DNA from: a virus | Length of the DNA stretch: 64,000 nucleotides | Direction: 5' to 3' (one strand) | IMG/VR virus record: IMGVR_UViG_3300042731_007944 | Coordinates: 40,988-104,987 of that record | In this document: piece by piece, positions 9,146 through 33,453 of the stretch | How positions within the stretch are numbered: the stretch's first letter is position 1 | Layout: each line of letters opens with the position of its first letter | Made by a program: the position numbers and the translations under genes | Notes under the pieces: generated by a model | The model's input: only the letters and a program-made list of their open reading frames with translations | What the model was told of the DNA's origin: nothing | The model's database searches: none

Positions 9146-9148
9146 ACC

Positions 9149-14864: not shown

Positions 14865-14866
14865 CG

Positions 14867-16075: not shown

Positions 16076-16944
16076 AGACAGACCCCCCAGATCAGATACT
16101 TTGTTTGCCCGCTACGAGGGCTGGCAAGCGCGTACAACAGAAACAGCCACCCCACGACCCCAGAGAGCAGCAACGGCAACCCGTAATAGCCTATCGTCGT
16201 CATTCGAATACGATAGGCGGTCCGTTGCGATCCCGGCAGCAGACAGCGCGGCCTCGGCGACAGACTGTTCTTCCGGCATTCCCGCCAGAGTTTACGCATC
16301 CAGTACTCAGTACGAAAGGCCAGAACATACCACGGCGTGACCAGGAGACAGACCATTATCGTCATCCAGCCGTGTGTCAGCGCACAGGCGATCACCGCAA
16401 GCAAGGCCACCGGTTTCACCCAGAGCGTGACGGCTAACAGCACGCCGGATACGAGCGGGATCGGACACCCCCACGCCCAGAGTAAGCACATCACGGCCAG
16501 GCTATCATGCGTCAGTTGCCCGATCACCATGGCGAATACCGGAGCCAGCAGCACCCATGCGGCGCGGCGCGGAAGCCAGAGCATCGGCAGCAGACAGCCA
16601 GCGATAGACAGGATTCTCGCGAACTGGCGTGAGTGAATCCGCGACAGCGCAAAGGACACAAACGGATTCTGGAAGCGGCAATAATTCAGAAAGGAGAAAT
16701 CCTGTAGGAAGAGCGCGAGCGACTTCCTGTTCCGCGTTTCCTGCCAAAGCAGATCCGCATCGGCATAGGACGCCTGCTGCCAGAAGACGAACGCGCCACA
16801 ACTCACCAGGGGCAGCAGACGCCATGCTCCGGAGAGGAGAGAGAACCCCCAAGCGAGGACTCCTGAGAGCACGAGCCACACGAGATCCTGCCATCGTAGG
16901 GGTCGAATTGGATCGGCTGCGGTCATGCCATACACGGAGATCAT
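16063..16944 (-). CDS. Polytopic membrane protein
   Basis: Many hydrophobic segments; ATG coupled to an upstream small ORF. Confidence 0.65.
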   Translation of the reverse strand: MISVYGMTAADPIRPLRWQDLVWLVLSGVLAWGFSLLSGAWRLLPLVSCGAFVFWQQASYADADLLWQETRNRKSLALFLQDFSFLNYCRFQNPFVSFALSRIHSRQFARILSIAGCLLPMLWLPRRAAWVLLAPVFAMVIGQLTHDSLAVMCLLWAWGCPIPLVSGVLLAVTLWVKPVALLAVIACALTHGWMTIMVCLLVTPWYVLAFRTEYWMRKLWRECRKNSLSPRPRCLLPGSQRTAYRIRMTTIGYYGLPLLLSGVVGWLFLLYALASPRSGQTKYLIWGVCLCLM

Positions 16945-18244: not shown

Positions 18245-19324
18245 TCAGATCCTCGTCTTCACGCACTCTTTGAAGTGCAGATCCACGGCCCCGTGAAAAT
18301 CCACCCCGGCGAACTGCTGGCGGAAATCCCGAATATTGCGCCAATCACAGAGAAAGAATGTCTCTGGCTCATCATAAAACAGATGGACATACAGTGGGTG
18401 GATCTTTCCGCTCGTGACGATATCCACCACGGCGGCCTGCATGGCAGCGAGACTCGCAATATCGTTCAGCGATTGCACGTCATAGTGCAGCAGGAGATCC
18501 GCTTGCTGCGCATACGCCTTGTGTCGAAACATGCCGGCTGGATTCTCACTCTCCGCCCCGGTGTAGCCGTAGCCTCGCGAGGACGTCCACCAGGCGTTTG
18601 CTTCGAGTTCGCGATAGGATCCCAGATAGAGCGTCGCCGTTTGAAAATACGACAGCGCCCCATCCACCGGGACGATGCGCCAGTACCGGTACGTCTGATC
18701 CAGGTAGAAGATCAGCTTGTGATCCGTCACGGTGATCGCCTGCGAATACGCCGGGCTGCCCCAACTGTCTGAGGAGTTCGCCTGAAGCGTCAACGTGCTT
18801 TGCCCGGCCACCAGATTGTGATTCATCAGGGCAAAGGCCGTCACCTGCTGCGCACTGCCGAGGTCAATCACGATCGGAAACGTGGCTCCTGACCGAAAAA
18901 GACTGTTGGGGTTCAAATTCAGCAGGTTTCCGGCTCCGTATTTCGCCACGGCGAAGAACTGAAAGGTGTCTTCCAGCGTGAAGTCATCGCCGACCCCCGC
19001 CTGCCAGGCGATCTTAACGCCATAATTCAGCGTGGCAAGCGTCGTGAGGGTCGTGACGCCGGTGGCTTCCCAGCCGGAGCTTTCTGAGGTCTTCCAACGA
19101 TAGGTCGCCTGCCCCACAGAGACGCCGGGTGTGATGCTGTCGATCTGGGCGATGTAATCCAGGTTCTGCGCCCCGGCAAACGATCCGGCGGCAAACGCCG
19201 CCGCGCTGCCGGTCCCTCGCGTTTTCTCCACCCCGGAGACGATCCCCCCGGCCTGACTGCCTGCGGCGATCATATCCACGGACGTAATGTAGTTCGTATC
19301 CAGATAGCGCTCAGCGGTATACAT
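18245..19324 (-). CDS. Putative distal tail protein with carbohydrate-binding-like insert
   Basis: Directly after tape measure; IVIDLGSAQQVT...YRYWRI F5/8-like motif. Confidence 0.6.
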   Translation of the reverse strand: MYTAERYLDTNYITSVDMIAAGSQAGGIVSGVEKTRGTGSAAAFAAGSFAGAQNLDYIAQIDSITPGVSVGQATYRWKTSESSGWEATGVTTLTTLATLNYGVKIAWQAGVGDDFTLEDTFQFFAVAKYGAGNLLNLNPNSLFRSGATFPIVIDLGSAQQVTAFALMNHNLVAGQSTLTLQANSSDSWGSPAYSQAITVTDHKLIFYLDQTYRYWRIVPVDGALSYFQTATLYLGSYRELEANAWWTSSRGYGYTGAESENPAGMFRHKAYAQQADLLLHYDVQSLNDIASLAAMQAAVVDIVTSGKIHPLYVHLFYDEPETFFLCDWRNIRDFRQQFAGVDFHGAVDLHFKECVKTRI

Positions 19325-21819
19325 CAGCGGCTCCCCCAGCGGGTGGCGGTGGACACGACGCGGCTTTCCTGGGTGCGCTGGGCGTTCGTGATCCGCTTGG
19401 CAAACGCCTCCACGCTGCGCTCGTCCACAATATTGTTGCCTTCAAACACGACGGTCACCGGCGCGGTGTGCGCGGGTGTTGCCGCCTGCGCCTGTACCTG
19501 TGGCGGCTGATACTGTGACCGCGTGGGCATCGTGAGCACGCCTACCCCGCTCGCGCCGTAATACGATCCGCCCCCGGCCAGCGCACTGGCAATGTTCAGG
19601 CCCCCTCCGGCCATGTACTCGCCGCCTCCGGCCAACATCGTCGCCAGGCTCGATCCAATCGCCTGCCCGGTCGTCTTCGCCTGGGAGGTCACGCCCTGAA
19701 GACTCGATCCGATGCCGTCCACGGACGCCACGACTTTGTCCGCCCAGGACGCCATTTCTGGGAACACACTATGCTCATAGGCTTCATCGCCCAACGCCTT
19801 CACCTCTTCTTTTGCGCCAAAAATTTTGTCTTTCAATTGTGTCATGGCGACGCCCACTTTGTCAACCATGCGTGACATGCCTTCACTCACCGCTTCCCAC
19901 GCGCCTGCTAATTCATTTTTCAGCAAATCAATAATGGTCCGGATACTGTCGCCAAGCGTGCCAAACACATCCAAATACGCTTCTTTAAAGCCATAGGCGC
20001 TATCACCCATTAATTCAAATCCGGCAACGACCGCCTGAAACAAGGGCATCGTGATTTTACGCGCCTTCTCGATCCCCCCCGCGATACCATCCAGTACCGG
20101 CCTGATCACGTCCCACGCCACACCGAACGCATCGCCCACTTTTTCAGCGAAATCCACAACTTTCGTCAACTTAGGAATCAATTCTGTGAGCGCCGGGCCG
20201 AGCGTCGTCACGATCTCTTTGGCCGTTGTGAACGCTTTACTCAGGCCCGTTTGCCCGGATTCGTCCGGCGTGGTGTACTTCACAAACACCTCTTTAATCT
20301 GCTCGCCCAGGCCCTTCAGGGTTTCCCAGAATTTCGAGGCCCCGGCTTCAACAGAATCCCAAAGGGTTGCCCCGTGCTCTTCGACATACGTCATCCAGAC
20401 TTCAAACTGTTCTGATAGCGGTCCAATGACGGCCCCGGCAAGTTCCAGGGCTTTATCATGGAGAATACCAAACACCTCATGTAATTTCTCGCTGTTCCGG
20501 CTCCACTCCTCAAATTTGTCAACCAAGGGGTTAATGTAATTTTTGAGGAAATCCGCAAATGTTTCGGCAAATGGTTCGCCGAATGTGATCAAAATGCTAT
20601 TCCAAATACTACCAAGGACTTTTTGCGCTTCTGACGCCCGATCTACCTGACGGGCATAACTGTCCATGTGTGAGTTTGCGCTAATAAATGCGTCCTCAGC
20701 AATTTTGAAAATAGATAAAAAGCCCTCTCCAATAGGCATTGTCTGATCCATTGCCGCTGCTAATGTTGAAATAGCTTTGAGGCCGATTGCTCCAAAAGCA
20801 TCGGTGGCAAGGGTATTTTGATCAACCCCCGCCCTGATAGATTCAACGGACATATCCAGGCCGTTAAACGCCTCGGTGAGCAAATTCATTGTGTTGAACG
20901 AATCCTGTCCGAGGGCATATTGAATCATTTCACCGAGTGAAGAGAAGGAGATCCGGCTTTTGCCGGTGATCGCCTCTAATCTGGCAATGGCTGCCGTTCC
21001 GCCGTCTGATTGTGCCGTCAGCATTTTCGCTGCGGCGGCTAACGCATCCGTTTTGGTTGTCAGGTTGAAATAGGCACTTCCCATCTGCCGCGATGCGCTC
21101 GTGGCCGCTAATCCTCCTGAGATCAGAGCCCCGCCCCAGGCTGTCGCTTGTTCATAGCTGAGCCTCATCACAGCGTTATTTTGCCCCATTGCCTTGTTAA
21201 AATTGCTGATCTCAAGCTCGTTCGCATTCATGCTTTTGCTGACAGCATCCAGGGCAGAGAGCATATTTGCGGTAGAATCAGCGGCGAGTTTAAAAATGGT
21301 CTGGGATTTCCCCATGTGGAGGGCGAGCTTTTCCGTACTACCTCCAAATTTATCAAGTGCAACAGCGCCAATCCCGACTTGACGTGAAAATTCGGCGATT
21401 GACTCAGCGCCTTTGATCCCCATCTGACCAGCAACCTGCGCCACTTCAAGAAGGTTGGCGGCCGTCAGACTCCCAATTGGTTTGGCGAGTTCGCGGATCT
21501 GTTTGCCGAACTCATCAAGGGCATCGCCAGTCATGCCGGTGGTTTTTCCGACTAGCGCGAGGGCGTCATCATACGTTTGGTAGGCATCGACGGCATCAGT
21601 CACAAATTCCGTACTGATGTCCATCATCGAGGAGGCGACATTGCTAACAAGGTCAATAATGCCACCGAAGGCTTTGGTCGCAATAGAGGCGAGTGATGTG
21701 AATGCGCCACCGAGAGAAGTGACGCCCTTAATTGAACCCCCGAGATCCAGGCGGACTTTTACGGTAATTTCATCGACTGTTGCCACTACGTGGTCGTAGA
21801 GCGCCCGTGTTGACGCCAC
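19324..21819 (-). CDS. Tail tape measure protein (start may be a GTG near 21790)
   Basis: Long Ala/Gly-rich helical protein; VGKTTGM...AQVAGQMGI, HSVFPEM. Confidence 0.9.
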   Translation of the reverse strand: MASTRALYDHVVATVDEITVKVRLDLGGSIKGVTSLGGAFTSLASIATKAFGGIIDLVSNVASSMMDISTEFVTDAVDAYQTYDDALALVGKTTGMTGDALDEFGKQIRELAKPIGSLTAANLLEVAQVAGQMGIKGAESIAEFSRQVGIGAVALDKFGGSTEKLALHMGKSQTIFKLAADSTANMLSALDAVSKSMNANELEISNFNKAMGQNNAVMRLSYEQATAWGGALISGGLAATSASRQMGSAYFNLTTKTDALAAAAKMLTAQSDGGTAAIARLEAITGKSRISFSSLGEMIQYALGQDSFNTMNLLTEAFNGLDMSVESIRAGVDQNTLATDAFGAIGLKAISTLAAAMDQTMPIGEGFLSIFKIAEDAFISANSHMDSYARQVDRASEAQKVLGSIWNSILITFGEPFAETFADFLKNYINPLVDKFEEWSRNSEKLHEVFGILHDKALELAGAVIGPLSEQFEVWMTYVEEHGATLWDSVEAGASKFWETLKGLGEQIKEVFVKYTTPDESGQTGLSKAFTTAKEIVTTLGPALTELIPKLTKVVDFAEKVGDAFGVAWDVIRPVLDGIAGGIEKARKITMPLFQAVVAGFELMGDSAYGFKEAYLDVFGTLGDSIRTIIDLLKNELAGAWEAVSEGMSRMVDKVGVAMTQLKDKIFGAKEEVKALGDEAYEHSVFPEMASWADKVVASVDGIGSSLQGVTSQAKTTGQAIGSSLATMLAGGGEYMAGGGLNIASALAGGGSYYGASGVGVLTMPTRSQYQPPQVQAQAATPAHTAPVTVVFEGNNIVDERSVEAFAKRITNAQRTQESRVVSTATRWGSR

Positions 21820-21896
21820 AAAAAAACCGGACAGACGGAGTGTAGCGGACCCCGTGTTTGTCCGGTAAGAAAATCATGATTTCGTGTGTTGGCAGC

Positions 21897-21939: not shown

Positions 21940-22107
21940 TGTGAAAAGAAAGGCAACTTATTTTTTTGTGCCATAGGGGAAGCGTAAAAAGGCTGACGAA
22001 ATTTGTCAAGTTTTTCTCGCAAAAATTATTATAAAAAATGGGTCTTTTTTGGTAAATATACCTTGACAAAAAACCTGTTCATCTGTCAGTATTATCTATG
22101 TTGAGAG

Positions 22108-22130
22108 TTTAAAGAATAATATTGTTAGCA
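22108..22130 (+). other. attI-like site heading the cassette array
   Basis: TTTAAAGAATAATATT-GTTAGCA; GTTAGCAGGC is the reverse complement of the first attC start GCCTGCTAAC. Confidence 0.55.
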
Positions 22131-22143
22131 GGCTTTTGAATAT

Positions 22144-22239
22144 GTGGCGTGTACCGTAGGGGTAACGAGAGGACAGACCTTGTCTCACGTACTCGCGATG
22201 CCGTGAGGCCCGTTGGTTCGATTCCAACCACGCCACCCA
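22144..22239 (+). ncRNA. tRNA-like RNA in cassette 1
   Basis: Acceptor (G)TGGCGTG/CACGCCA(C), CCA end, T arm GTTGG-TTCGATT-CCAAC; non-canonical central region. Confidence 0.65.
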
Positions 22240-22259
22240 CAGAACAAGAAAAGAGGAAG

Positions 22260-22481
22260 ATGATGTCATTAGCAAAGATATTTTTTACCCAGTTAAGACT
22301 ATCGCTTTGTTTGCTTTTTTTGCAACTCGTTTTGAAAATTGTTCCAAAAGATGACGATGAAGGAAAACTCATTATAGCATCAATTGGTGCATTGGCAAAA
22401 ATGGAGTCGGCCTTGTTATCGTCACAACTGCCTGCTAACAAGGCCATGCAAAAGACACAGGCCGATGCCCGCAAAAATTAG
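22260..22481 (+). CDS. Cassette ORF, hypothetical (reads into attC)
   Basis: GAGG RBS; ORF. Confidence 0.5.
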   Translation: MMSLAKIFFTQLRLSLCLLFLQLVLKIVPKDDDEGKLIIASIGALAKMESALLSSQLPANKAMQKTQADARKN

Positions 22482-22555
22482 GAAATAACTATATACTGTA
22501 TCGCCCGCTATCAGGTTCACTCTTTGCCTGTGCTTCTGATGGCCGGCCGTTATGA
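22433..22555 (+). repeat. Integron attC site
   Basis: TGCTAAC...GTTATGA; GGCCAT(G)CAAAAG(A)CACAGGC pairs with GCCTGTGCTTCTGATGGCC, leaving extrahelical bases. Confidence 0.85.
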
Positions 22556-22566
22556 GGCTTCGTTAA

Positions 22567-22842
22567 ATGGCAATCCGATTAAGGAAAATAGAAAATACGT
22601 ATGTAGCGTTATGTGCTGTTGAATCAGACGCAAAAGTTGGCGATATTTATCTTGATGATAATATGCACCATGCGCTTTATACGAAATTCGCAATAGATTT
22701 TAATAGTGAGCGGAATTGCGGTATTGTGTTTGATGAAATTGTCGCAAAACTTATGGAGTCTCAAAAGGTTCGTGATGCACAAGAAGAAGCCGAGAGGTGG
22801 AGTGCAGAACGCCGTCATAACGCTCCAAATCAGCAGAGGTGA
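22567..22842 (+). CDS. Cassette ORF, hypothetical
   Basis: Starts just after attC; ends across an attC remnant (GTCATAAC 22814). Confidence 0.65.
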   Translation: MAIRLRKIENTYVALCAVESDAKVGDIYLDDNMHHALYTKFAIDFNSERNCGIVFDEIVAKLMESQKVRDAQEEAERWSAERRHNAPNQQR

Positions 22843-22845
22843 CGT

Positions 22846-23076
22846 ATGCGAGAAATAAATTTATTGAAGTGGATGCGAGATCATTGTTTGCGTTATGGCA
22901 GTATTGGAATTGCTGCAAAAAGATTCACTGTCTCGAATATTTGCTATGAATTGTTCATAGACCGCGATACCATTACGACGGAGATTGAAAAAATGGTTGA
23001 AAGTGGTTTGGTAATGTGGTTGTTTGATAAAGATACGCTTGAATTAACAAAAAAAGGCATCCATGCAACCTCATAA
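22846..23076 (+). CDS. Cassette ORF, small winged-helix-like protein
   Basis: GAGG RBS; stop in attC R''; LELTKKG motif. Confidence 0.6.
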   Translation: MREINLLKWMRDHCLRYGSIGIAAKRFTVSNICYELFIDRDTITTEIEKMVESGLVMWLFDKDTLELTKKGIHATS

Positions 23077-23200
23077 CAATAAAATGCACGTGAGTTTGCC
23101 CGCTGTCAGCAGTTTCCAGCGTTGCACTTCCGCTCACATGTTGTCGTAGTCCAAACGTGGTTGCCCGCTATGGCAAACCACGTGATTTTCAGCGTTATGA
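23071..23200 (+). repeat. Integron attC site
   Basis: TCATAAC-AATAA-AATGCACGTGAG...CCACGTGATT-TTCAGC-GTTATGA. Confidence 0.85.
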
Positions 23201-23253
23201 GGCTTGTATGACACGTCAATTTGAACTGTGGAATCAGGGAAGATGGATGGAAG

Positions 23254-23471
23254 AATTTCCGGCAGAGATCATTACGAATTCCCGCGCGCCGCAAGGCGGG
23301 GGCTTCCTGATGAGTGGGCCAGATGGAGTAGCCCCGGAATTGTCCCGCAGGCTCCCTGAGCTAAGAAAGGGCGAGAACCCTGAAAGTGAGAAGGGCTGAC
23401 ACTCGGAAAGGACGAGCTAACCTGTCGTCATAAATTGATAAGAAAGGCGACCCCGGACGAGAGTAACCGGG
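23254..23471 (+). ncRNA. Putative structured ncRNA in an apparently non-coding cassette
   Basis: Chain of GC-rich hairpins with purine-rich loops; no convincing ORF. Confidence 0.45.
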
Positions 23472-23565
23472 AAATCTTGAACATATTCCGTGGGGAGTGC
23501 TCCGAGGAGAGAGCCCCGGCTGTGCAGCATCCAAAAAAAGAATGGCAGCCAAAACAGGAGCGCCA

Positions 23566-23666
23566 TCATAACAAGCAATTTCACCAGACAACGCCCGCCG
23601 TCAGGTGTTTTGCAGATTAGAAACCACGTCGCAAGCGGGCATTGCAGGTGATTTGCGGCGTTCTAA
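23566..23666 (+). repeat. Integron attC site
   Basis: TCATAAC-AAGCA-ATTTCACC...GGTGATT-TGCGGC-GTTCTAA. Confidence 0.8.
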
Positions 23667-23686
23667 TGCCTTCAGCGGAGGATGTC

Positions 23687-24013
23687 ATGTTTGAAAAAAT
23701 AGAACTTACTAAAGACAATCTTTTGGAATTTCTATCAAATAATGTGTGCGCGAAAGACTCTGAATTCAATCTTGAACTATGCGAATCAAAAGGCCGTGGC
23801 CGCAGTGGGCGTACAGTTTTTTATATTCATGGCGAATTGATAAGCCATTTGTGGAAAACATGTCAAATTAATCGAGCCCCTCGGTTTTCCGTATTCTCCG
23901 ATCAAGATGTCATTGAAAGGGCGAATAACTGGATAAAACGAAAAAGAAAGTTGTTGGTTGGGGCATTAGAACAAACGCTTGCAAAAGACCCCAAAGACGC
24001 GGGCGAAAATTAA
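23687..24013 (+). CDS. Cassette ORF, hypothetical (reads into attC)
   Basis: GGAGG RBS. Confidence 0.65.
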   Translation: MFEKIELTKDNLLEFLSNNVCAKDSEFNLELCESKGRGRSGRTVFYIHGELISHLWKTCQINRAPRFSVFSDQDVIERANNWIKRKRKLLVGALEQTLAKDPKDAGEN

Positions 24014-24073
24014 TCTTGTTAACGTCAGCTTCGGTGGCCGCGTCTTTGGGGCTGTTGAAGCGAGGCGTTACAT
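23966..24073 (+). repeat. Integron attC site
   Basis: TTAGAAC...GTTACAT; CCCCAAAGACGCGG/CCGCGTCTTTGGGG stem. Confidence 0.85.
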
Positions 24074-24136
24074 GCCCTCCCCGTAGGCGTAACCGCTCAT
24101 TGAAAACTTAAAAATCTTCCTGAAATCAAAAAAACA

Positions 24137-24186
24137 TTCAATTTGAATAAATAATACTTGACAATATTCATATTGAATATTATATT
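24137..24186 (+). promoter_or_regulatory. Cassette-internal sigma70 promoter with two palindromes
   Basis: TTGACA-17-TATATT; TTCAATTTGAA and TTCATATTGAA. Confidence 0.6.
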
Positions 24187-24238
24187 ACATGTGACGCTGA
24201 AAAAGGGAACATAAACACAAATTCAGGAGGATTCAATC

Positions 24239-24535
24239 ATGACAGCTTATGAAAAAAACCAGGCAATGTTAAACAAGCCAAAACAACAGTTATACCCCCT
24301 TGAAAAAGTTTTGAGAAAAGAAGGGTGGGAATACATGTATTGCGACAATACAAGCGAGGTATGGGATGTAAAAGCCCTGCTTGAAAGCGAATGTCCGGCA
24401 TTGCAAGAATTGTGTCGCCCTGAGATGGGAGAAGGTGAGGTCGTCTTTCATTTTCATCAATATTGTTTGCGCAAGGGTTCGCTTGGGGTTGCTGCCTCAG
24501 TGAACACTTTTCGTACTATCAAAACGACCATCTAA
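24239..24535 (+). CDS. Hypothetical protein (possible toxin of a two-gene pair)
   Basis: AGGAGG RBS; precedes XRE gene. Confidence 0.55.
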   Translation: MTAYEKNQAMLNKPKQQLYPLEKVLRKEGWEYMYCDNTSEVWDVKALLESECPALQELCRPEMGEGEVVFHFHQYCLRKGSLGVAASVNTFRTIKTTI

Positions 24536-24547
24536 GGGAGATTCGCA

Positions 24548-24958
24548 ATGTATCCACGTATCGCGACAGCAGCGCAGATTATGGCGGCCTTAATGGCCGC
24601 CCTCGGCTGGAAACAAGCCGACGTAGAGCAAGAATTAGGCTTCAACCAGAGCGAAATCAGCAAGCTTCTTACTGGTGATATTGGCTTCACCAAAAAAACA
24701 GAGAAGCTTGTGGATTTATATTTAGAGCATAAGCTTTCTGACGATCAGAAGCGTGAATTTGGATGGGAAATCTTTTTGCAGCTTCATCGCGAAGAAGTTG
24801 TCGATTTGGCGAAAAAAGCCGGATGGTTTCCGCGCTCTGGCAGCAGTTTAGAACTTGATGCGTTTTTACTGCCAGATGGTTTTGAGGCTCCGGCAGTTGA
24901 AGCGTATTCAGAATTATGTAATGTGTTAGACGCTACAAAAATGGAGTATGGCATGTAA
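24548..24958 (+). CDS. XRE-family HTH protein
   Basis: LGWKQADVEQELGFNQSEISKLL; stop in attC. Confidence 0.75.
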   Translation: MYPRIATAAQIMAALMAALGWKQADVEQELGFNQSEISKLLTGDIGFTKKTEKLVDLYLEHKLSDDQKREFGWEIFLQLHREEVVDLAKKAGWFPRSGSSLELDAFLLPDGFEAPAVEAYSELCNVLDATKMEYGM

Positions 24959-25055
24959 CAAAGCGTTTCACGGGACTTTGCCCGCCCGCGACGTTTGATT
25001 CAGTTTTGAAACTTGGTTCCGGGGCGGGCAAACCCCGTGAACGCAGGCGTTATAA
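24953..25055 (+). repeat. Integron attC site
   Basis: ATGTAAC-AAAGC-GTTTCACGGG...CCCGTGAAC-GCAGGC-GTTATAA. Confidence 0.9.
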
Positions 25056-25080
25056 ACCTTAGCGCCAACGGAGTACAAAC

Positions 25081-25801
25081 TTGAAAATAGGCCCATACGA
25101 AACAAATCAGATTTACACCGGAGACGCGAGAGCCTTGTCAAAGGAAATCCCTGATGAGTCTATCGACTTAATTTTGACCGATATATCAGAATATAGAAGA
25201 CTATCTGTGGCTTTCAAATTTGGCTCAGAGAGTGTTGAAACCGAATTGCGCCTGTCTTATGTGGCAGGGCCAGCAGTGGCTTTCTGACACAATCTGCGCG
25301 TTGAAAGCGGGGCCTTTGGCGTATCGTTGGGTTTTGGGGTGGTATGCGTCCAACAATATGCAGATGGTCGGCAAGATAGGGCGCAAGATTGCGCCCTGTT
25401 TATGGTACGAGAAAGGCCACAGCAACCCGTTCAAAGCCGTCCGTGAAGTGGTTGACGTGCCGATCCCAGGCAAGAAGCCGCCGTTCAAATGGGCGAAGAA
25501 TCCGAAAGCTCTTGCGTATTATCTCAGCAAGTTTGCAAATGAGGACAGTGTCGTTTTTGACCCGTTTTCAGGCATGGGCAGTTTACCGGCAGTCTGCAAA
25601 AGTTTTGGGATAAATTTTCTTGCCTTTGAACTGGAAGCGGATCGCGCAGAATCAGCGCGTGAACGTTTAGCCCAAACTCCGGTGCCATTGCCTTTTAAAG
25701 TCCTGCAATCAGAGCAAACAAGCTTTGACTGTGGGGTTTATAACAATGGCATGGAGCCGGATTTGAAACCCGCCGCGTCAAGTTTTGCGGCGAACAATTA
25801 A
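25081..25801 (+). pseudogene. N4/N6 DNA methyltransferase (beta class), frameshifted at the catalytic motif
   Basis: IYTGDA...IDLILTD, frameshift, then RVLKP...VFDPFSGMGS. Confidence 0.8.
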
Positions 25802-25847
25802 CAACGGTGGGCGGCGGGCTTCAAACCGCTCATGCCTGCCGTTATAA
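25738..25847 (+). repeat. Integron attC site
   Basis: TTATAAC-AATGG-CATGGAGC...GCTCATG-CCTGCC-GTTATAA. Confidence 0.9.
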
Positions 25848-26143
25848 CGCATATCATACTCAACGTGGGCAGTACAACAAAAAGCTGTAAAAACGTCTTG
25901 CGCTTTCCAGATTGATGCGTTACGATGATTGGAAGAGAGGTATGGTGGCCCACACAGCACGGTTGCGCCGAGGTTTGTTCACGCTACTCCTCGTCAAATA
26001 TGGTGTGGCGTTTTGTGATGGTTGGTTGCCTTTGGTCATGGCGCAACCGTCCAGTGTGGAGTCAGGGGAGTTGCTCGTATCAAAAATACGCATCGCGCCA
26101 CGCTTCGCGTCGCGCTTATTTGGATTTTCGCCCCAGAAATATT

Positions 26144-26335
26144 ATGCAGTACACAGTAAATTTTTTAGAAAACGATGGAGAATACATAGGGATCTTGACA
26201 GTGAATTGTGATCATGGTGTTAAGGTCGATGAAAGTGATCCCCGTATATTTTATGCCGACAACGTAAGTATTGCCATTGATGAGGAAATTGTTTCTGTTA
26301 AAGATGATAATGGTAATGTAGTATTCAAAGGGTAA
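26144..26335 (+). CDS. Hypothetical protein
   Basis: Small acidic ORF directly upstream of 26343. Confidence 0.55.
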   Translation: MQYTVNFLENDGEYIGILTVNCDHGVKVDESDPRIFYADNVSIAIDEEIVSVKDDNGNVVFKG

Positions 26336-26342
26336 ATATAAT

Positions 26343-27002
26343 ATGCCTGTTCCAGATCACGTCATCTTTGGCCCAAATTCCCAAGGCGAGGGAATCACAT
26401 ATGGGCAAGTTCGCGCCCTTGAAGAAAACGATCGTTACTCAGCGCTGAAGCAGAGACTCGATACTTTTCTGATTTCACAAATACACGAACTCGCCAAAGA
26501 GGAGGACGGGCAAAGAAAAGTCTACAGCCCATTTCCATTATTCTTGCTGACATGCATAGCCATAGAGGCTCTCGGGAAGGCATTGTACCGACCCTCCCAG
26601 CCTATGTCTGATAAGGACGCTCAACGTGAAGGCTTCTTTACGGTGTGTGGCAAGATCGATAAACATTTCTCCCGACCGTTGCGTAAGAAGGATAAAAAGA
26701 GACTTGATATGCTTTGGGGAGAAAATATGCAGAAAAAGCCTGAAACGTTGGCAGATGTGATATATCGTTTTGGTCGGCATACTATGGCGCACGGGTTTCG
26801 AGGAAAAGGAGTCTATCTTACCGAAGATAAGAAGATCGAATGGGAATTTATTGACTGTGCGTTATATTTAAATCCTTACTGGTTCTGGCGGACATTCACG
26901 GCTGTATACGAACAGGGATGGGCTGCGTTGTTTGAGAATAAAGAGCCAACGAATACACTAAAACGTTCGGCTGATCAGTATTTGGCAGAAATATTGGAAT
27001 AA
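26343..27002 (+). CDS. Putative HEPN-like protein
   Basis: IAIEALG helix and RHTMAH (Rx4H). Confidence 0.5.
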   Translation: MPVPDHVIFGPNSQGEGITYGQVRALEENDRYSALKQRLDTFLISQIHELAKEEDGQRKVYSPFPLFLLTCIAIEALGKALYRPSQPMSDKDAQREGFFTVCGKIDKHFSRPLRKKDKKRLDMLWGENMQKKPETLADVIYRFGRHTMAHGFRGKGVYLTEDKKIEWEFIDCALYLNPYWFWRTFTAVYEQGWAALFENKEPTNTLKRSADQYLAEILE

Positions 27003-27024
27003 ACCAACAAAAAGGGAAGTAATA

Positions 27025-27054
27025 TTTAAAGGCGTTATAATAATATTGTTATAA
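27025..27054 (+). other. Second attI-like site in place of an attC
   Basis: TTTAAAG-GCGTTAT-AATAATATT-GTTATAA; no attC hairpin. Confidence 0.5.
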
Positions 27055-27078
27055 CCACCTTAGAAGGAGCAGCCAACT

Positions 27079-27402
27079 ATGGGCATGAAAAAACATACAT
27101 ACGTAATGACTGGGATAAAATTGACACCTAAAATGCTTGAGACTCAAATGATTGATATTTTCAGTGACAAACTGCTTCCACTTGTTGAAGGTCATAAAGA
27201 TGTTTCGTTGTCCATTGTTTATGGTGAAGGAAGTAGCGTCTATGCTGGAAAGATTGTTGCTAAAAGTGAACCATATAGCGATGATGTATCACAAGAGCTA
27301 CAATTCCCGTCTCGTCAGGAAGTGGCAAATGAGTTGAGGAAATATGGGTTTAAAATTGAATCCTATTCCGTTAATAACTGGTTTTTCGATATTTGGCGAT
27401 GA
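27079..27402 (+). CDS. Cassette ORF, hypothetical
   Basis: AAGGAG RBS; ends at attC. Confidence 0.7.
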   Translation: MGMKKHTYVMTGIKLTPKMLETQMIDIFSDKLLPLVEGHKDVSLSIVYGEGSSVYAGKIVAKSEPYSDDVSQELQFPSRQEVANELRKYGFKIESYSVNNWFFDIWR

Positions 27403-27506
27403 TTATAACAATGCGTTTCAAGCGACTCCTGCCCGCCACGACGCTTTGGATAAGCTTTGAACTTTAGTTTCAGGCGGGCAGGAGCGCCTGAACGCAAACG
27501 TTAGGG
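27403..27506 (+). repeat. Integron attC site
   Basis: TTATAAC-AATGC-GTTTCAAGCG(A)CTCCTGCCCGCC / GGCGGGCAGGAGCGCCTGAAC-GCAAAC-GTTAGGG. Confidence 0.9.
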
Positions 27507-27632
27507 CGCATATCGCTTGTAGCATAGTTGGTTGGTACGAGCAGTGAAAAATAACTTGCGCCCGTAACCAATCCATGCCATATTAATTCGATTTGAGATA
27601 ATGGAGATAATATACAACAAAAGGAGAATGAT

Positions 27633-28367
27633 ATGAAAACATATCGTGTGATTTTCATTATTGTCATAGCATTATTTTTATCTACTTCATGTTCAAACAA
27701 AAAGCAATGGGAACAGGCAATTAAAGAACGCGATGATATTATTCTGGGACTTCAGCAACAATTACAGGAGACACAGAGACAACTCGGCACTTGTCAAGAA
27801 GATCTCGCTTCGGCACAAGAAGCCTTAACGGCTTCCCCTTCATCGGAACCGGAAGGGTATACGCCAACACACTATAATTCAGTGTATGATGTTCTGCATG
27901 AATGGTATTCTTACAGCACCGATGACGGGACATTCAAGACCATATCAGAGAATCCGCTACATATTCAGATTGTTCCTACTTTCATGCAAGATGAATATCC
28001 CGACATCAACCGTAATGACGTAAAAACGGCACTCCTTGAGGCCGTCTATCGGACATTTATCCATACGGATACAAAGGCATTGACCGTAACATGTACCCCG
28101 CAATTAATCCAGAATAATAATGGAGATTTTGAGACCAAACCGCTTGAAAAATATGCAAAAACGATCACTGTTTCGAAAGAAATGGCCGTAAAGATAGCGG
28201 AAAGCCATCTCAACATATCAACTCTTTCCGAATTGGTCATGGACCAGAAGGTAGGAGGGATACTCATTACTGACGAATGGACGGACAAATTCAAAATGGT
28301 AATTTATGGGGAAGATTACAACACACCGGATTTGTTAGATACAATTTTTTCTAAGCTTGAGGGATAA
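27633..28367 (+). CDS. Lipoprotein
   Basis: Signal peptide with STSC lipobox-like motif; coiled coil. Confidence 0.75.
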   Translation: MKTYRVIFIIVIALFLSTSCSNKKQWEQAIKERDDIILGLQQQLQETQRQLGTCQEDLASAQEALTASPSSEPEGYTPTHYNSVYDVLHEWYSYSTDDGTFKTISENPLHIQIVPTFMQDEYPDINRNDVKTALLEAVYRTFIHTDTKALTVTCTPQLIQNNNGDFETKPLEKYAKTITVSKEMAVKIAESHLNISTLSELVMDQKVGGILITDEWTDKFKMVIYGEDYNTPDLLDTIFSKLEG

Positions 28368-28384
28368 ATAGATCGTGTTATAAT

Positions 28385-28440
28385 GAGGATAGGGATCGCG
28401 ACCTGAACGGGCCGATTGCTCCTGTCATCGGCTCTTCCTC
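28385..28440 (+). ncRNA. Structured leader RNA, GAGGATAGGG family (copy 1)
   Basis: Similar to 61122-61171 and 62886-62934; directly after TG-TATAAT. Confidence 0.5.
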
Positions 28441-28499
28441 ATCTTTATAAATTGTCAGGAGAAGAAATCGACGATAGGAGTGTTCATGGTTGTTGTGCT

Positions 28500-28790
28500 A
28501 TGCCAGTAAAAGAAGTCCATCATGAAAATATTGTGCTATTTGGTTCAACTGTGATATGTTGGCATTATCCAGAGATTTATCACCCGAAGAAACAGGATAG
28601 CATTATTCTTGAATTAGCACATATTCGTTCCGCAAATAATCTTCATATCACGTTTGATGCAAAACGAGATGGCTATGTTATCTCTCAACAGACAATATTT
28701 TCGTGGCCTCTAGATGATGATATTTGCGATCCAGGTTGGCAAGAAGTGGCCTTTATTGAAGCGTGGCAACCAAAACAACGATATTTCTGA
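28500..28790 (+). CDS. Hypothetical protein
   Basis: ORF. Confidence 0.5.
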   Translation: MPVKEVHHENIVLFGSTVICWHYPEIYHPKKQDSIILELAHIRSANNLHITFDAKRDGYVISQQTIFSWPLDDDICDPGWQEVAFIEAWQPKQRYF

Positions 28791-29155
28791 AGAAAATGAA
28801 CAACATCGCATAATGGTGTCTACGATTCTTTATAATATCTTTGAGGAAGAATCGCAAGACGTGTTGACATGGTATGAAGAAAACTTAAAAACCGGTTTAA
28901 ATCAAGACGACCGGTTAGAAAAATATGCACAAGCCCAGGATCAAGACCAATTTGTTCGTTTGGTTATTGTCACAAATGACAATGGATATTCTATAAGCAT
29001 TGAAATTACGCCTGAATCAAAAGAGAAGAAATAGGTGCTGGAAGTAAAAATAGATAGTGTTCTAAAAATGATAATAGGATCGTATCAGATGGATAACTCT
29101 GGTCTAAACTCTCTAGGGTGATAGGATAAGAGCCTGTAGGGGGGATAAAATAAAC

Positions 29156-29782
29156 ATGAAACAAACCATAGAAGAACAACTCGAAGAGGCCAATATCGAT
29201 GCACATTGTGCGGTCAGCCTCCATAAAGCTCACATTGCCAAATATGAGAAGCTTCTAACTGCTGTTGATGCATTATCTGTTTGTGTCCCCGTTGGGTTTT
29301 TTGGTGTCCAAGTGGCCTCTATTCAATTTCCCGCCGTAGCAACTTTCTTGGCGAGTGTCATTAACCCTCTCTTATCCGCCGCTCTCTTAATCTTGGTACT
29401 TTTTACCCTAGTGACGCAATCCCGTGCTAAACTCAAGCAGCATCAGCGCTTTTTATCGGAAGAAATTATCGTTATTCGCGAAATAAAAGAACTGTTGTCA
29501 GGGGAGACAATCACTTCTGAAGCGACTAAGCGTATATTAGATTGGGCGGCACGCTTGGCACAAGATGAAGAACAGATGTTTTCAAAGTTATCTGAATTGG
29601 AAAAACGAAATTATTATCGTCTTGGGTTGCGGGCTATTGGAGATCCGACGGTAGTCTGCCCGATCTGTGGTGCATCTCCGTATCACTATCAGAAACCTCA
29701 AAAAAACGAAATGTGTCAAACGTGTGGGAATACGCCGGGGCATCAACTCACAAGGGGGACAGAATATGAGTTGGGCAGTTGA
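29156..29782 (+). CDS. Two-TM protein with C-terminal CxxC...CxxC (mobilome/SLATT-like)
   Basis: Two TM segments; CPIC...CQTC. Confidence 0.6.
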   Translation: MKQTIEEQLEEANIDAHCAVSLHKAHIAKYEKLLTAVDALSVCVPVGFFGVQVASIQFPAVATFLASVINPLLSAALLILVLFTLVTQSRAKLKQHQRFLSEEIIVIREIKELLSGETITSEATKRILDWAARLAQDEEQMFSKLSELEKRNYYRLGLRAIGDPTVVCPICGASPYHYQKPQKNEMCQTCGNTPGHQLTRGTEYELGS

Positions 29783-29954
29783 CGAGTTTAAAAAGTGGTA
29801 CACTCAATTGCCAGAATCCGAAAAACGGCAATTGCAGCAATTTTTATCAAAGGGGTTGCCCGGTGGCCCACCAGACAAATTTGGAGTGCGGTTAGGTCCT
29901 CCTCCAGCGCAAAAGAAAGGAAGTGTGTGTCCGACATGCGGAAAACCGTGGTAA
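29766..29954 (+). CDS. Small protein ending in CPTCG
   Basis: Overlaps upstream gene; Pro-rich. Confidence 0.55.
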   Translation: MSWAVDEFKKWYTQLPESEKRQLQQFLSKGLPGGPPDKFGVRLGPPPAQKKGSVCPTCGKPW

Positions 29955-30106
29955 CAAATACTGGTCTGATCAATATGCGAATTCTCGCCATTCTTCTCAG
30001 CATTCTTGGATGGTTTTGGTTGGAGGGTGTGGCTTGGCTCGGAATCATTTTGGCGAACGTATTGTTGTTATGGCAAGATTTACGCTCTACAAATTGGAAG
30101 AAGCCA

Positions 30107-30439
30107 TTATGCCGTTGACGGTTCTTGACCCGCTTCGCCCTTGCGCCGGTACAGGTCTCGAAATTCGATCCAGCGCGTGCGGGTAACGGTTATGATTTCT
30201 TGCGGTTGCTGTACGGGTGACTCTGCTTTTATTTCCGGTACTGAAGAAGCTTCTTGAGAGGGACTGGCGAGTTGCAGTTTCAGGTCATTGATTTCTTGCT
30301 TGAGGTTTCGGATCGTTACATCGCGGGATTCGACAAGCTGCTTATAATGATCGACGTCATTCCCTATGCTACCGATCACGAAGAAAAACAGGACCGCAAT
30401 AACGGCCAGGACGATTGTTACAATCTTCCATTTGTTCAT
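30107..30439 (-). CDS. Single-TM coiled-coil protein
   Basis: AGGAGG RBS; N-terminal TM. Confidence 0.6.
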   Translation of the reverse strand: MNKWKIVTIVLAVIAVLFFFVIGSIGNDVDHYKQLVESRDVTIRNLKQEINDLKLQLASPSQEASSVPEIKAESPVQQPQEIITVTRTRWIEFRDLYRRKGEAGQEPSTA

Positions 30440-30525
30440 ATCGCATCCTCCTTTCAAGAGAAGATGCGAAACACTGACATTTCTGTCAAGAATTTTTTAA
30501 AACAGGCTTTTTTGTCTCCTGATTT

Positions 30526-30945
30526 TTAGACGCCAAACTGACGAATCTTCGCGATTCCATCCGCGATCCGAGCTTCACTCACTTGCTCTAACTCAGTGAT
30601 CGGGTCGTGGTTCTCATCGAATCTCATTCCCGCCGGCGCGGTAAATACTTTCACGACGGCGGTTATTTTTAGATACGCGGCCAGGCGATCCGCGTAATTG
30701 ACGATGCGTTGCGCCTTTTTTAACTCGCGGCCAACGTATGCGTACACGGTGACGTATTTGCGAATGTTTTTCTCATTCCGGAACCAGATGGATTGTTTGT
30801 TGCTGCCCTTATGGGTCCGGGCGGTGGTCTCTAAGAAGGCTTCAATGCTGTTTAAGAGGTCGGTGTCAACCGCTTGTACTTTTGGTTGCGGTTGTGCTTT
30901 TTGAAAATTTACCTGAATCACATTGCCGTGTACTGAGTATTCCAT
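30526..30945 (-). CDS. Hypothetical protein
   Basis: GGAGG RBS. Confidence 0.6.
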   Translation of the reverse strand: MEYSVHGNVIQVNFQKAQPQPKVQAVDTDLLNSIEAFLETTARTHKGSNKQSIWFRNEKNIRKYVTVYAYVGRELKKAQRIVNYADRLAAYLKITAVVKVFTAPAGMRFDENHDPITELEQVSEARIADGIAKIRQFGV

Positions 30946-31146
30946 GTTGTTCCCCTCCGGTGTTTTGTGTTATAGTATTTTCTTGTTACTATATTATAAA
31001 TATAGTACTTTTTTATAATTTGTCAATAGAACCACCTGTTTTTTTTATAAATTTTTATAGTTTTTTTTTGACAAAAGAGGCCCGAACAGTTATTTTTATG
31101 AAAATTATTTATCAAATAAGGCTTTTTCTTTATAGGGGGGGGTTCT

Positions 31147-31341
31147 ATGGCAAGACGTGAAGACTCGAGACAGCTTATTATACAACTAAAACCTGAACTA
31201 CACCGATGGTTTAAAGCTTATTGTGCTCAACGGGGCGTATCTATGAATAGCCACATCGCAACATATCTTTATGAGTTGCGACAGGCTGAGGAAGAAAAAA
31301 CCTTGCGCCTTCAAAAATTAGCAAAGGATGTTGAGGAGTAA
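31147..31341 (+). CDS. Arc/RHH-type DNA-binding protein
   Basis: QLIIQLKPELHRWFKAYCAQRGVSMNS. Confidence 0.75.
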   Translation: MARREDSRQLIIQLKPELHRWFKAYCAQRGVSMNSHIATYLYELRQAEEEKTLRLQKLAKDVEE

Positions 31342-31345
31342 CCCT

Positions 31346-32053
31346 ATGAACCGTCTATTTTTTGTGAGTCTGTTTATTTTGTTCGCCGTCTCCGTGTCAA
31401 CGGCGGTCATCGAACCGCCTCGCGTATTCAGCGAGAGCGGGACCGTGGTTATGGTTGTGGACGGCGACACGATTAAGGTCAAGATCCGGAACACGGTAGA
31501 GACGATCCGGCTGATCGGGATTAATACGCCAGAGACGAAAGACCCACGCAAACCGGTGGAGTGCTTCGGGAAAGAGGCATTTGAACATGCAAAGAAGCTG
31601 CTCGAAGGAAAAAAGGTCAAGCTGAAATCTGATAAGACACAGCAGAACCGGGACAAATATGATCGGATGCTCCGGTACGTGTGGATTGGCGGGAATGAGC
31701 TTGTTAACCACATGATGATAGCAGACGGGTACGCCTTCGAATACACCTATGAGACGCCGTATCTTTATCAAAAGGAATTTCAGGAGGCTCAAAAAGACGC
31801 GAAAGAAGCCCAGCGCGGCCTGTGGCATCCTGACACCTGTGCCGGGGAATTGAAACCGGAGAAACAGGACGCCACGCCAACACCAACAGCCACGCCGAAA
31901 CAGAACACGTCAGCATTCTCCTGTACGCCGAAAAAGACGTGTGGCAAGATGACGTCCTGTGAAGAAGCCTATTATCATCTAAACACCTGCGGGAATAGCA
32001 GTCTAGATAGGGATAAAGACGGCATTCCGTGCGAGTCCATTTGTGGAAATTGA
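31346..32053 (+). CDS. Exported thermonuclease (SNase) with Excalibur Ca-binding domain
   Basis: VVDGDTI, IRLIGINTPE, DKYDR, RGLW; LDRDKDGIPCE. Confidence 0.92.
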   Translation: MNRLFFVSLFILFAVSVSTAVIEPPRVFSESGTVVMVVDGDTIKVKIRNTVETIRLIGINTPETKDPRKPVECFGKEAFEHAKKLLEGKKVKLKSDKTQQNRDKYDRMLRYVWIGGNELVNHMMIADGYAFEYTYETPYLYQKEFQEAQKDAKEAQRGLWHPDTCAGELKPEKQDATPTPTATPKQNTSAFSCTPKKTCGKMTSCEEAYYHLNTCGNSSLDRDKDGIPCESICGN

Positions 32054-32220
32054 GCCATGAAACACTGTTCCGCGTAAAATTCTCTGGACGGTTCGTGAAG
32101 ATCGCGACACGTCGCGTTTTGTTCAAGACAAGCAAAAATCCGGTGTGTCGTCTGCCGATTTCTCAGCAGCGATTGAACGTTTGAATCAGGGATGCGAGGA
32201 AGGACAAGAGGGAGCAGACC

Positions 32221-32472
32221 ATGTTAACACGTAGAAAGAAGAACCTGACGCGCACCTTGCGCCTGTCGTATTCGGAGGCGGATCGGCTACGGCAAAAGCT
32301 GTATTCCGATGTAGACCGGCTCTCGCTGTCTGACGTGAAGAAGCTGATCACGGTTTTGGATGACGTGTATCCGGAGATCACGAAAAGGACGCAACAATGG
32401 CCATGGCGTCTGGCGCTGACCTGCTTTGGGGCGGGCATGGGGCTTGTGGTACTGGTACTGCTGATAGTATAA
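32221..32472 (+). CDS. Small membrane protein
   Basis: GGAG RBS; C-terminal TM. Confidence 0.55.
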   Translation: MLTRRKKNLTRTLRLSYSEADRLRQKLYSDVDRLSLSDVKKLITVLDDVYPEITKRTQQWPWRLALTCFGAGMGLVVLVLLIV

Positions 32473-32602
32473 GGGGGTGTAGCTCATCGGAGGAGCAGGC
32501 GGGGAGGGTGCTAGATGAGTCCAAAGGGCTGTGACACGGCCAGCCACATTGAACGCTCGACGATCCGTAACAGGAAAGTCGGTTCGACTCCGACCACCCC
32601 TT
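32473..32602 (+). ncRNA. tRNA-like RNA with elongated anticodon arm
   Basis: Acceptor GGGGGTG/CACCCCT, D arm GCTC/GAGC, T arm GTCGG-TTCGACT-CCGAC, ~80 nt between D and T arms. Confidence 0.65.
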
Positions 32603-33024
32603 TACCCGAAAATTCTTTTTACACAACAATGCTCCTTGCGCAAGCCCTATACCACTCGGGGAGTTGGCGAGAGGTGCACACTCTTGATAGCGTGGGCCCG
32701 TCCGGAATGGCATATGGCAAGACCGATGACGCTATGCTCCACTGGTGGAAGGATGTGTGCGAGGCTGCACGAGTCCAGACGGCGCTTGAACGAGAGATTG
32801 CATGGAAGTACGGGCTTGAACGATTACGGTGTTGAGCGAGACAAGAACATCCCTATACTTAATGCGAGACATCCGAGGATATTTGGCTTCCATGTCGCAA
32901 GGAAGACCTGCATTTGCGACAATTCCGGAAACCGTGCCCAATGGTAGACGGGAAGAATTAAGGCCGCACACCCTCCCGCGACCAGCATTAAACCAAGACC
33001 TTTTTGACAGTTCCCTTCTTCATC

Positions 33025-33453
33025 TTATTCCATGCTAAACGCCAACCGACAGCGGCAGTTGATGCGATCCCCTGGGTGGATGATCGGATCACGTGGATGC
33101 ATCGGACCTGGCCAACCCTTGAACTGCACAGAAAACCGTTCATCAATCCGGCGTTCTTCCAGGTGTCGAAAGTTATGTTTTTTGCGGACCCGTGAATCCC
33201 GCCGTGTGAGCCACGTTTTGAACAAAAATCCTGCCTCTTTTGCCCGTTTCCACCCCGCGTCATCGTGCGGCGAGGGAATATCACTGAATCCCCAGGATCG
33301 CAATTTCGCGGCCATGGCGTTCAAATAGTGTTCTACGAGGAAACCGTGTTCCGTCTGAAATCGGTCAGGGGGAACCGTCTGCACGAGCATCGCGTGAAAG
33401 CGTGCGTACTGTCCGAAAGACTGCTGCAGAAGGGTGTCAAGTGGAAGGGTCAT
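33025..33453 (-). CDS. Mu gpF-like minor head protein (short)
   Basis: KTWLTRRDSRVR..H...INCRC. Confidence 0.75.
   Translation of the reverse strand: MTLPLDTLLQQSFGQYARFHAMLVQTVPPDRFQTEHGFLVEHYLNAMAAKLRSWGFSDIPSPHDDAGWKRAKEAGFLFKTWLTRRDSRVRKKHNFRHLEERRIDERFSVQFKGWPGPMHPRDPIIHPGDRINCRCRLAFSME

Follow-up and report, generated by a model that had tools for sequence, protein, structure and literature searches.

The cassette array in the DNA analysed here probably belongs to a complete integron, in which it is the second of two arrays headed by an attI site; the carrier would be a large temperate phage, or a prophage recovered as a near-circular contig of 105 kb. The window, a stretch of 64 kb, is the right-hand part of a 104,987-bp IMG/VR viral contig, and direct support for this reading comes from the recombination sites and the structure of the array, the duplication of an attI region, the integron integrase (IntI) encoded on the contig, the insertion of the island that holds the array, and the cassette-precise boundary of one shared cassette. 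The array (window 22125-27500, plus strand) consists of seven attC-bounded cassettes followed by a 68-bp cassette stub, and it lies antisense inside a phage morphogenesis region, as described in the initial annotation, with the tape-measure gene on one side and tail and head genes (33450 onward, minus strand) on the other:

19324-21819, minus strand: tape-measure gene, left flank of the island; weak Pfam match to PhageMin_Tail, homologues named TP901-family tape measure protein
22125-22549, plus strand: cassette 1, with a tRNA-like element (22144-22239), a 73-aa ORF (22260-22481) and attC1
22550-23194, plus strand: cassette 2, with ORFs 22567-22842 and 22846-23076 (weak winged-helix hints only) and attC2
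23195-23660, plus strand: cassette 3, with no convincing ORF, and attC3
23661-24067, plus strand: cassette 4, with one ORF ending at 24013, no family assigned, and attC4
24068-25049, plus strand: cassette 5, with a 98-aa ORF, a 136-aa Xre-type HTH protein and attC5
25050-25841, plus strand: cassette 6, with a broken N6/N4 DNA methyltransferase gene and attC6
25842-27500, plus strand: cassette 7, composite, with a structured leader, ORFs 26146-26335, 26343-27002 and 27079-27402, and attC7
27501-27568, plus strand: cassette stub, with a cassette start and R''-like box and no further attC; end of the recognisable array
27569-33024: attC-free remainder of the low-GC island, with accessory genes
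33450-33965, minus strand: Phage_tail_S virion-morphogenesis gene, right flank of the island

The seven attC hairpins recognised previously are all present, within a few bases of where they had been placed; each is given from the start of the R'' box to the G of the R' GTT:

22430-22549, plus strand: attC1
23069-23194, plus strand: attC2
23563-23660, plus strand: attC3
23962-24067, plus strand: attC4
24950-25049, plus strand: attC5
25735-25841, plus strand: attC6
27401-27500, plus strand: attC7

Folded as single-stranded DNA, the bottom strands adopt the attC shape: the R boxes are paired, the central spacer is not, some bases bulge out and the tip varies. Folding z-scores are -3.2 to -6.5 in six of the seven sites (-0.86 in attC1), and an alignment of the seven contains compensatory changes in 14 of the 22 consensus pairs. 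A covariance model trained on these sites scored them at 84-99 bits on the plus strand and at no more than 22 bits on the minus strand. The model also recovered nine sites outside the training set, six beside intI and three at the contig end, which score 33-76 bits with the exception of one site truncated by the end (10.8 bits; E 2.3). The features that define an attC site, namely R''/L''...L'/R' arms forming an imperfect palindrome that ends in AAC...GTT, a spacer left unpaired, extrahelical bases and a variable loop, are found in the folds, the covariation and the strand-specific matches. With its filters off, the model detected no further attC in 27513-33600; Rfam, which is without an attC family, gave no match within the array. 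Three attC copies on the contig are near-identical.

Five complementary pairs of cassette start and R'' box had been quoted, all correctly. Over positions 5-12, cassette starts match their own R'' at a mean of 5.6 of 8 positions, against 3.3 of 8 for non-own pairs; the start of cassette 1 is the exact complement of the attC1 R'' box, the match of cassettes 3 and 7 to their own attC is limited to the 7-nt core, and the start of cassette 3 fits the R'' of attC2 better than its own. The attC sites and these complements bear out the earlier view of the array as genuine integron cassettes integrated at G|TT.

The initial annotation described the array as having no IntI. This holds for the 64-kb window, and no intI lies within 4 kb of the array, but the proposed search of the rest of the prophage located an intact integron integrase gene at contig 9945-10868, about 53 kb upstream of the array (TIGR02249, 329.8 bits; cut-off 265). 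The protein aligns over its full length with VchIntIA (PDB 2A3V; E 8e-70), with the IntI-specific insertion, the HxxR box and the tyrosine all covered, and so supplies the integrase of a complete integron; it is at most 50% identical to any protein found, and the nearest IntIs come from mixed phyla. An array with six attC sites lies directly beside the gene and divergent from it, and is probably joined through circular closure by the three sites at the contig end, giving about nine cassettes in all:

59909-64000, minus strand: distal cassettes of the intI-adjacent array, with three attC sites, of which the last is truncated at the end of the contig

The start and the end of the contig are two halves of one repeated attC with 3 nt missing between them, which would fit a closed circle of phage and integron. 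The contig combines these integron parts with genes typical of phages (large terminase, Mu-type portal, head protease, major head protein, tail tube, tape measure and tyrosine integrase), and by gene content it belongs with the phage-borne integrons as defined by Qi et al. (2023).

Far from being a bare attC cluster, as had been supposed, the array has at its head a second, inverted copy of the attI and promoter region of this integrase, with 97% identity:

21954-22124, plus strand: attI-2, inverted copy of the intI-attI intergenic region, ending at the crossover G (22124)
22003-22032, plus strand: Pc candidate, a promoter-like site in the attI copy directed into the cassettes (10/12 in a consensus scan)
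22056-22028, minus strand: opposing promoter-like site, facing the intI remnant and the tape-measure gene (10/12 in a consensus scan)

In a self-blastn comparison, contig 9767-9944 matched window 22130-21954 in inverted orientation at 97.2% over 178 bp, with a perfect core of 150 bp. The duplicated 178 bp span attI, the promoter-like sites and the first seven codons of intI, the last forming a remnant ORF from 21974 to 21936 on the minus strand. Identity between the copies stops at the G|TT crossover, and behind each follows a different cassette whose start is complementary to its own R''; by their position, both copies would act as attI. The outer edge of the duplication is a G|TTA within intI, and the 12 nt beyond this edge in intI match the first cassette start of the flagged array at 11 of 12 positions. 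The second head may itself be a product of IntI recombination at a secondary site; no simple recombination pathway giving an inverted attI duplication could be derived. A short attI-like stretch in cassette 7 (27025-27056) was rejected as an attI unit, having no extended similarity (score 13, null mean 12).

The island of about 11 kb is an insertion, since its flanking tail genes are adjacent in a distant relative drawn from the metagenome scan (L007), where the homologues of 33450-33965 and of the tape-measure gene are 97 bp apart, the former upstream. The tape-measure homologue of this relative is 38% identical over its full length, and the true start of the gene in the window is likely to be near 21786. 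Neither L007 nor other tape-measure loci contain an attC. Beyond the array, 27569-33024 holds a lipoprotein-like ORF, membrane ORFs, a gene for a secreted SNase-Excalibur nuclease (31328-32053), a tRNA-like stretch near 32470-32600 and a hairpin element (28380-28446) that is also found within a cassette of the other array. Tape-measure and tail-tube proteins revealed no close phage relatives among viral contigs.

The cargo had been read as a DNA methylase, an HTH pair and a tRNA-like RNA. The methylase is there, but a 5-bp deletion at 25181 takes out its DPxY motif, and Pfam N6_N4_Mtase matches the 3' part only. Just one HTH protein is clear, the 136-aa product of cassette 5, with matches to HTH_31/HTH_3 and to PHROG regulators; this cassette has a promoter-like site of its own (24158-24186; 11/12 in the consensus scan), and its layout resembles a toxin-antitoxin or regulator pair. 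The tRNA-like element of cassette 1 fails the tRNA models (23.9 bits against an Rfam tRNA-Sec cut-off of 47). PHROGs and PADLOC assigned nothing in the array besides the HTH protein and the methylase, and a 219-aa ORF falls into unnamed families in the Atlas. The 275-nt structured leader of cassette 7 is 82% identical to one in a cassette of the other array, and these two cassettes share the attC subtype and the start of the next cassette, which points to exchange between the arrays.

Sequencing runs X2 and X3 contain the methylase cassette with approximately 4-7% mismatches and a different upstream sequence. Five extra bases behind 25181 restore a single 241-aa methyltransferase frame in these variants; the similarity begins within 2 nt of the crossover, and in X3 the depth of about 20-24 is several-fold above that of the phage contigs there. 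This cassette-precise boundary in another context suggests that the methylase cassette is mobile in the wetland community. Neither excised circles nor reliable differences between samples with cassette-precise ends were seen: a joint from 24970 to 27422 in X3 (depth 2.4 against 21 at the side, with no cover over cassettes 1-4) was too weak to be taken as cassette loss, and a joint from 22127 to 25879 in run X1 is most likely a path through the other array and not an excision.

From these features we infer an integron that is currently active. The phage IntI would act at G|TT, recombining attC sites folded from the bottom strand with one or the other attI copy and thereby inserting, excising and reordering cassettes at both heads. 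Transcription of the proximal cassettes would start from a promoter in the duplicated region and run antisense to the late operon. Exchange between the inverted heads, whether mediated by IntI or homologous, would invert the essential 53-kb core and cause no deletion, which may be why the inverted orientation has persisted.

Several observations count against this reading and bear signs of decay: the frameshifted methylase gene, the ends of cassettes 3 and 7 mismatched beyond the core, and the truncated last cassette at the end of the array. Together with the remnant of intI codons 1-7 and with the attC-free island beyond 27570, which holds an element also found inside a cassette of the other array, they would suit a relic: a second copy of the integron, or an inverted duplication, that degenerated within the tail region, leaving seven codons of intI and, in place of mobile cassettes, a set of fixed accessory genes. 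We regard such a relic as unlikely. The attI copy is perfect over 150 bp, as against 82% for the paralogous cassette DNA, and the head is therefore young or has been kept uniform; all seven attCs retain their folds with compensatory changes, and an intact IntI is encoded in cis.

It is less probable still that the contig is no autonomous phage and represents a chromosomal or plasmid-like region in which a sedentary integron is interleaved with a defective prophage. A sigma-54 activator with a c-di-GMP riboswitch, an FtsK-like ATPase, sugar-modifying genes and TnpB, all encoded on the contig, would fit such a region, as would the classification of its ends as linear by IMG/VR; against it stand the phage-type genes in every stretch between the arrays and beyond intI, the two attC halves at the contig ends and a CheckV completeness estimate of 89%.

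The initial annotation itself favoured an integrase-less platform loaded in trans by the IntI of the host or of another element, and of this model the suggestion that the phage keeps a cassette platform of its own is borne out. By the distance rule of IntegronFinder the array would be classed as a CALIN (at least two attC sites and no intI within 4 kb), and the same wetland samples contain related cassettes in different surroundings. Loading in trans is nevertheless very improbable, as the intI on the same contig has equal depth, the array is headed by the contig integrase's own attI sequence and one model fits the attCs of both arrays; a host IntI possibly acts alongside that of the phage.

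Least credible is a chimeric assembly, in which the island or its link to the phage was drawn from a chromosomal integron through repeated attI and attC sequences, even though the 150-bp perfect inverted repeat, a 35-bp repeat and the near-identical attCs are ambiguous nodes for short-read assembly. In the source run, unitig depth is 30.5 for the 150-bp core, twice the 14.8-15.7 of the intI, tape-measure and cassette sides; one unitig of 34.9 kb links the tail genes with the copy-specific part of attI-2 on the tape-measure side, crossing its mismatches, and another of 35.4 kb runs from cassette 7 through the island into the tail genes. Parts of the region are present at 99% or more in three other samples. 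Because the 150-bp and 35-bp repeats stay ambiguous in the unitig graph, it is the original assembly that decides which head each cassette belongs to and which way the 53-kb core faces; however the repeats are resolved, the tape-measure and tail genes are separated by an array with an attI at its head.

A two-headed phage integron is rare and has been described once, in the Shewanella prophage M16-3 (Qi et al., 2023; PMC9892861), which is cryptic, P2-like and 40 kb long and has an IntI with 95% identity to the chromosomal IntI of its host; the present case adds a second one, in a phage that is unrelated and far larger. In both, one intI has a divergent array, and a second array, headed by an inverted attI copy ending at G|TT, lies antisense inside the tail operon and has cassette DNA in common with the first; on re-examination, the attI copy of M16-3 measured 149 bp at 88.6% identity. 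Here, however, the contig is 105 kb and its portal protein has no match among 50,697 phage records, the IntI shares only 36% identity with its M16-3 counterpart, the attI copy extends into intI, the arrays are larger (seven and about nine cassettes), and the cassette DNA shared between arrays is 82% identical, as against 99% in M16-3. The phage CALINs of Qi et al. (2023) likewise have attC arrays more than 4 kb from intI, with a methylase and small genes without assigned function, but the array described here comes with an attI, a promoter region and, elsewhere on its replicon, the matching intI, and is therefore part of a complete integron, not an orphan cluster. Sedentary chromosomal integrons such as the Vibrio superintegron also have mostly small ORFs without assigned function, related attCs within an array and a two-gene cassette with its own promoter; the differences lie in the phage-type replicon, the short arrays and the two attI heads.

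That two inverted attI heads are a selected, recurrent design of phage integrons, with the 53-kb core flipped by IntI or by exchange across the 150-bp core, seems doubtful to us. If true, a core flip would swap the array next to intI and bring the distal tail genes to lie downstream of the duplicated intI promoter. Five further viral contigs that encode IntI, 45-68 kb in length and one of them with terminal repeats, have no inverted second copy of the intI-flanking region, and given these single-headed cases the two-headed design is not general. The two known cases raise the question of whether the inverted head arises from side reactions of IntI and is kept as it spares essential genes from deletion. 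Beyond stray attC clusters, phages can carry the whole machinery of cassette capture and can present a single integrase with two or more docking sites. Three phage-linked integrons were found among 10,705 isolate phage genomes, but with relatives of IntI encoded on at least 340 IMG/VR contigs their true frequency may be far higher.

The seven cassettes of the flagged array lie on the + strand at window 22125-27500, and each is closed by an attC whose R'' box ends in AAC and whose R' box starts with GTT. The bottom strands of these sites fold with the R boxes paired, the spacer unpaired, bases bulged and the tip variable, much better than their shuffles in six of the seven; alignment of the seven revealed compensatory changes in 14 of the 22 consensus pairs, and a covariance model built from them was strand-specific (84-99 bits versus at most 22). 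On these grounds the initial annotation was correct in seeing an integron-type array here. Its statement that cassette starts are the reverse complement of their own attC start was borne out for the five cassettes for which it was claimed: in these the start is the exact complement of the R'' box, and in cassettes 3 and 7 the complementarity covers the 7-nt core only. With filters off, the same model found no additional attC in the island up to 33600.

Features of the two arrays and their surroundings (window coordinates unless contig is stated)
Left of the array, - strand: tape-measure gene and distal tail genes
Right of the array, - strand: Phage_tail_S-family gene, tail tube, Mu gp36-like gene, major head protein, protease, Mu-type portal and large terminase
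22144-22239: tRNA-like element, 95 nt, the first cargo after the second attI (attI-2); ARAGORN call tRNA-Gly(acc) with an odd anticodon loop
25860-26125 and contig 7395-7660: leader, 275 nt, non-coding, with a long stem
28380-28446 and contig 7315-7381: hairpin element, 80 nt, non-coding, with five compensatory pairs
Directly past attC7, + strand: cassette stub, 68 bp, a cassette start plus an R''-like box
Contig 9945-10868, outside the window: integron integrase, NCBIfam 329.8 bits versus a cut-off of 265

The array had been read as lacking IntI. The window makes up bases 40988-104987 of an IMG/VR viral record of 104,987 bp. The reading holds within the window but not on the contig, where the integrase exceeds the NCBIfam cut-off; the missing-integrase part of the earlier interpretation was wrong, intI being on the same contig, and its proposal that the phage keeps its own cassette platform was right. 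The alignment of this IntI to VchIntIA (2A3V) is full-length and takes in the IntI-specific insertion, the HxxR box and the tyrosine; no protein in a large collection exceeds 50% identity to it, and the matches there are named integron integrase. Directly upstream of intI the attC model placed six sites, all on the - strand (contig 4032-9346), and it placed three further sites at window 59909-64000. Since the contig's first 74 and last 70 bases together make up a single attC type, lacking 3 nt at the join, circular closure of the contig is probable, as is a total of about nine cassettes for the intI-adjacent array; the split attC type is also present twice internally. One cassette of this array contains an int-alpA RNA (61104-61174; 44 bits, over the cut-off), with a 264-aa ORF downstream.

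The flagged array is headed by an inverted copy of the region between intI and its first cassette: contig 9767-9944 matches window 22130-21954 at 97.2% identity over 178 bp, with a perfect core of 150 bp. The duplicated unit has the G|TT crossover at one end and codon 7 of intI at the other, and includes two predicted promoter-like sites lying face to face, 22003-22032 (+) and 22056-22028 (-). Because the inverted copy extends up to the crossover, and past it each copy runs into a different cassette matched to its own attC, we infer that the flagged array has its own attI. The outer edge of the unit is a G|TTA inside intI, and 11 of the 12 nt that follow match the first 12 nt of the flagged array's cassette 1, which sit at the opposite end of that copy. 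This is a hint that IntI acting at a secondary site was involved when the second head arose, although no pathway for it could be derived.

A survey of 10,705 phage genomes reported three complete integrons and 17 CALINs (Qi et al., 2023; PMC9892861). The record of one of the phages described there, the Shewanella prophage M16-3, has intI at 38888-39847 (+) with a divergent array, and a second array at 14664-16921 (+), antisense between baseplate and tail-completion genes; its attI region is duplicated and inverted (149 bp, 88.6%), and its arrays have whole cassettes in common at 99%. The architecture is thus the same in both, an inverted attI copy with a second array antisense in the tail operon, whereas the phages are unrelated, as are the IntI proteins (36% identity). 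In IMG/VR, IntI relatives are encoded by at least 340 viral contigs. Five long IntI-bearing contigs, all with an IntI over the cut-off, showed no second inverted head; two of the five were rated 100% complete and one had direct terminal repeats. The flagged array adds a good new case to a rare arrangement that is already published.

Unitigs and depths from the probable source run were used to consider the assembly. The 150-bp core unitig had a depth of 30.5, and all four flanks had depths of 14.8-15.7. One unitig of 34.9 kb leads from the tail genes into the copy-specific part of attI-2, and another, of 35.4 kb, connects cassette 7 across the island to the tail and head genes. The perfect core is an ambiguous node, as is a repeat of 35 bp, and the assignment of cassettes to heads depends on the original assembly, as does the orientation of the 53-kb core; under either resolution the tail operon contains an array with an attI at its head.

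The genes flanking the array are phage genes on the - strand; a tyrosine integrase gene is located farther along on the right. From ~21.9 to 33.0 kb the sequence is low in GC, with genes on the + strand. The whole ~11-kb island is an insertion into a tail operon, because in a distantly related metagenome locus (L007) the homologue of the gene at 33450-33965 precedes the tape-measure gene by 97 bp; this locus, its tape measure 38% identical, is the only informative relative. Hairpins with T-runs occur just upstream of the tape-measure start in both (window 21817-21866; L007 2777-2874), and the predicted intI promoter-like site of the duplicated unit at 22056-22028 (-) faces those hairpins and the tape-measure gene. 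Elsewhere on this phage-type contig, the ORF called for a HAMP-domain sigma-54 activator (1-2412) has a c-di-GMP-I-GGC riboswitch at its 5' end (2363-2439; 60.2 bits, over the cut-off), so that its true start is probably downstream of the riboswitch. An IS605-type TnpB (OrfB) gene (9781-11031) adjoins the tail-fibre region, and dTDP-sugar epimerase, RGP-like and glycosyltransferase genes lie between the portal and terminase genes (46362-50347).

Among the cargo of the flagged array, the methylase gene has lost its DPxY motif and its activity through a 5-bp deletion, a sign of decay. A single Xre-type HTH gene shares its cassette with one other gene, and this cassette has a promoter-like site of its own; the remainder are small proteins of unknown kind. 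The tRNA-like element has good acceptor and T arms and an encoded CCA, and fails tRNA models (Rfam tRNA-Sec, 23.9 bits versus a cut-off of 47). A second tRNA-like stretch at the island's right end (32470-32600), with no call from ARAGORN or Rfam, has acceptor-like ends and a T arm with ~65 nt inserted between. Within cassette 7, the last 20 nt of attI are repeated at 27025-27056 (7 + 13 nt exact, with a 7-nt insert), directly preceding the single-ORF unit closed by attC7; the similarity to attI extends no further, and the stretch may be a remnant of an older attI junction.

As a sign of exchange, cassette 7 and one cassette of the intI-adjacent array have in common their start, the 275-nt leader (82%), the attC subtype and the start of the next cassette. 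The hairpin element comes after the leader in the intI-adjacent array, but in the window it is 2.27 kb farther on, past attC7, a position suggesting a cassette origin for part of the attC-free island. It stands just upstream of different ORFs; neither it nor the leader has a match in Rfam, and both may be cis-regulatory. Copies of the methylase cassette with ~4-7% mismatches and five extra bases were present in two other sequencing runs (X2 and X3), in X3 at several times the depth of the phage contigs. The sequence upstream of these copies differs, similarity starting at most 2 nt from the crossover; of all the evidence here, these copies speak best for movement of the cassettes in the community.
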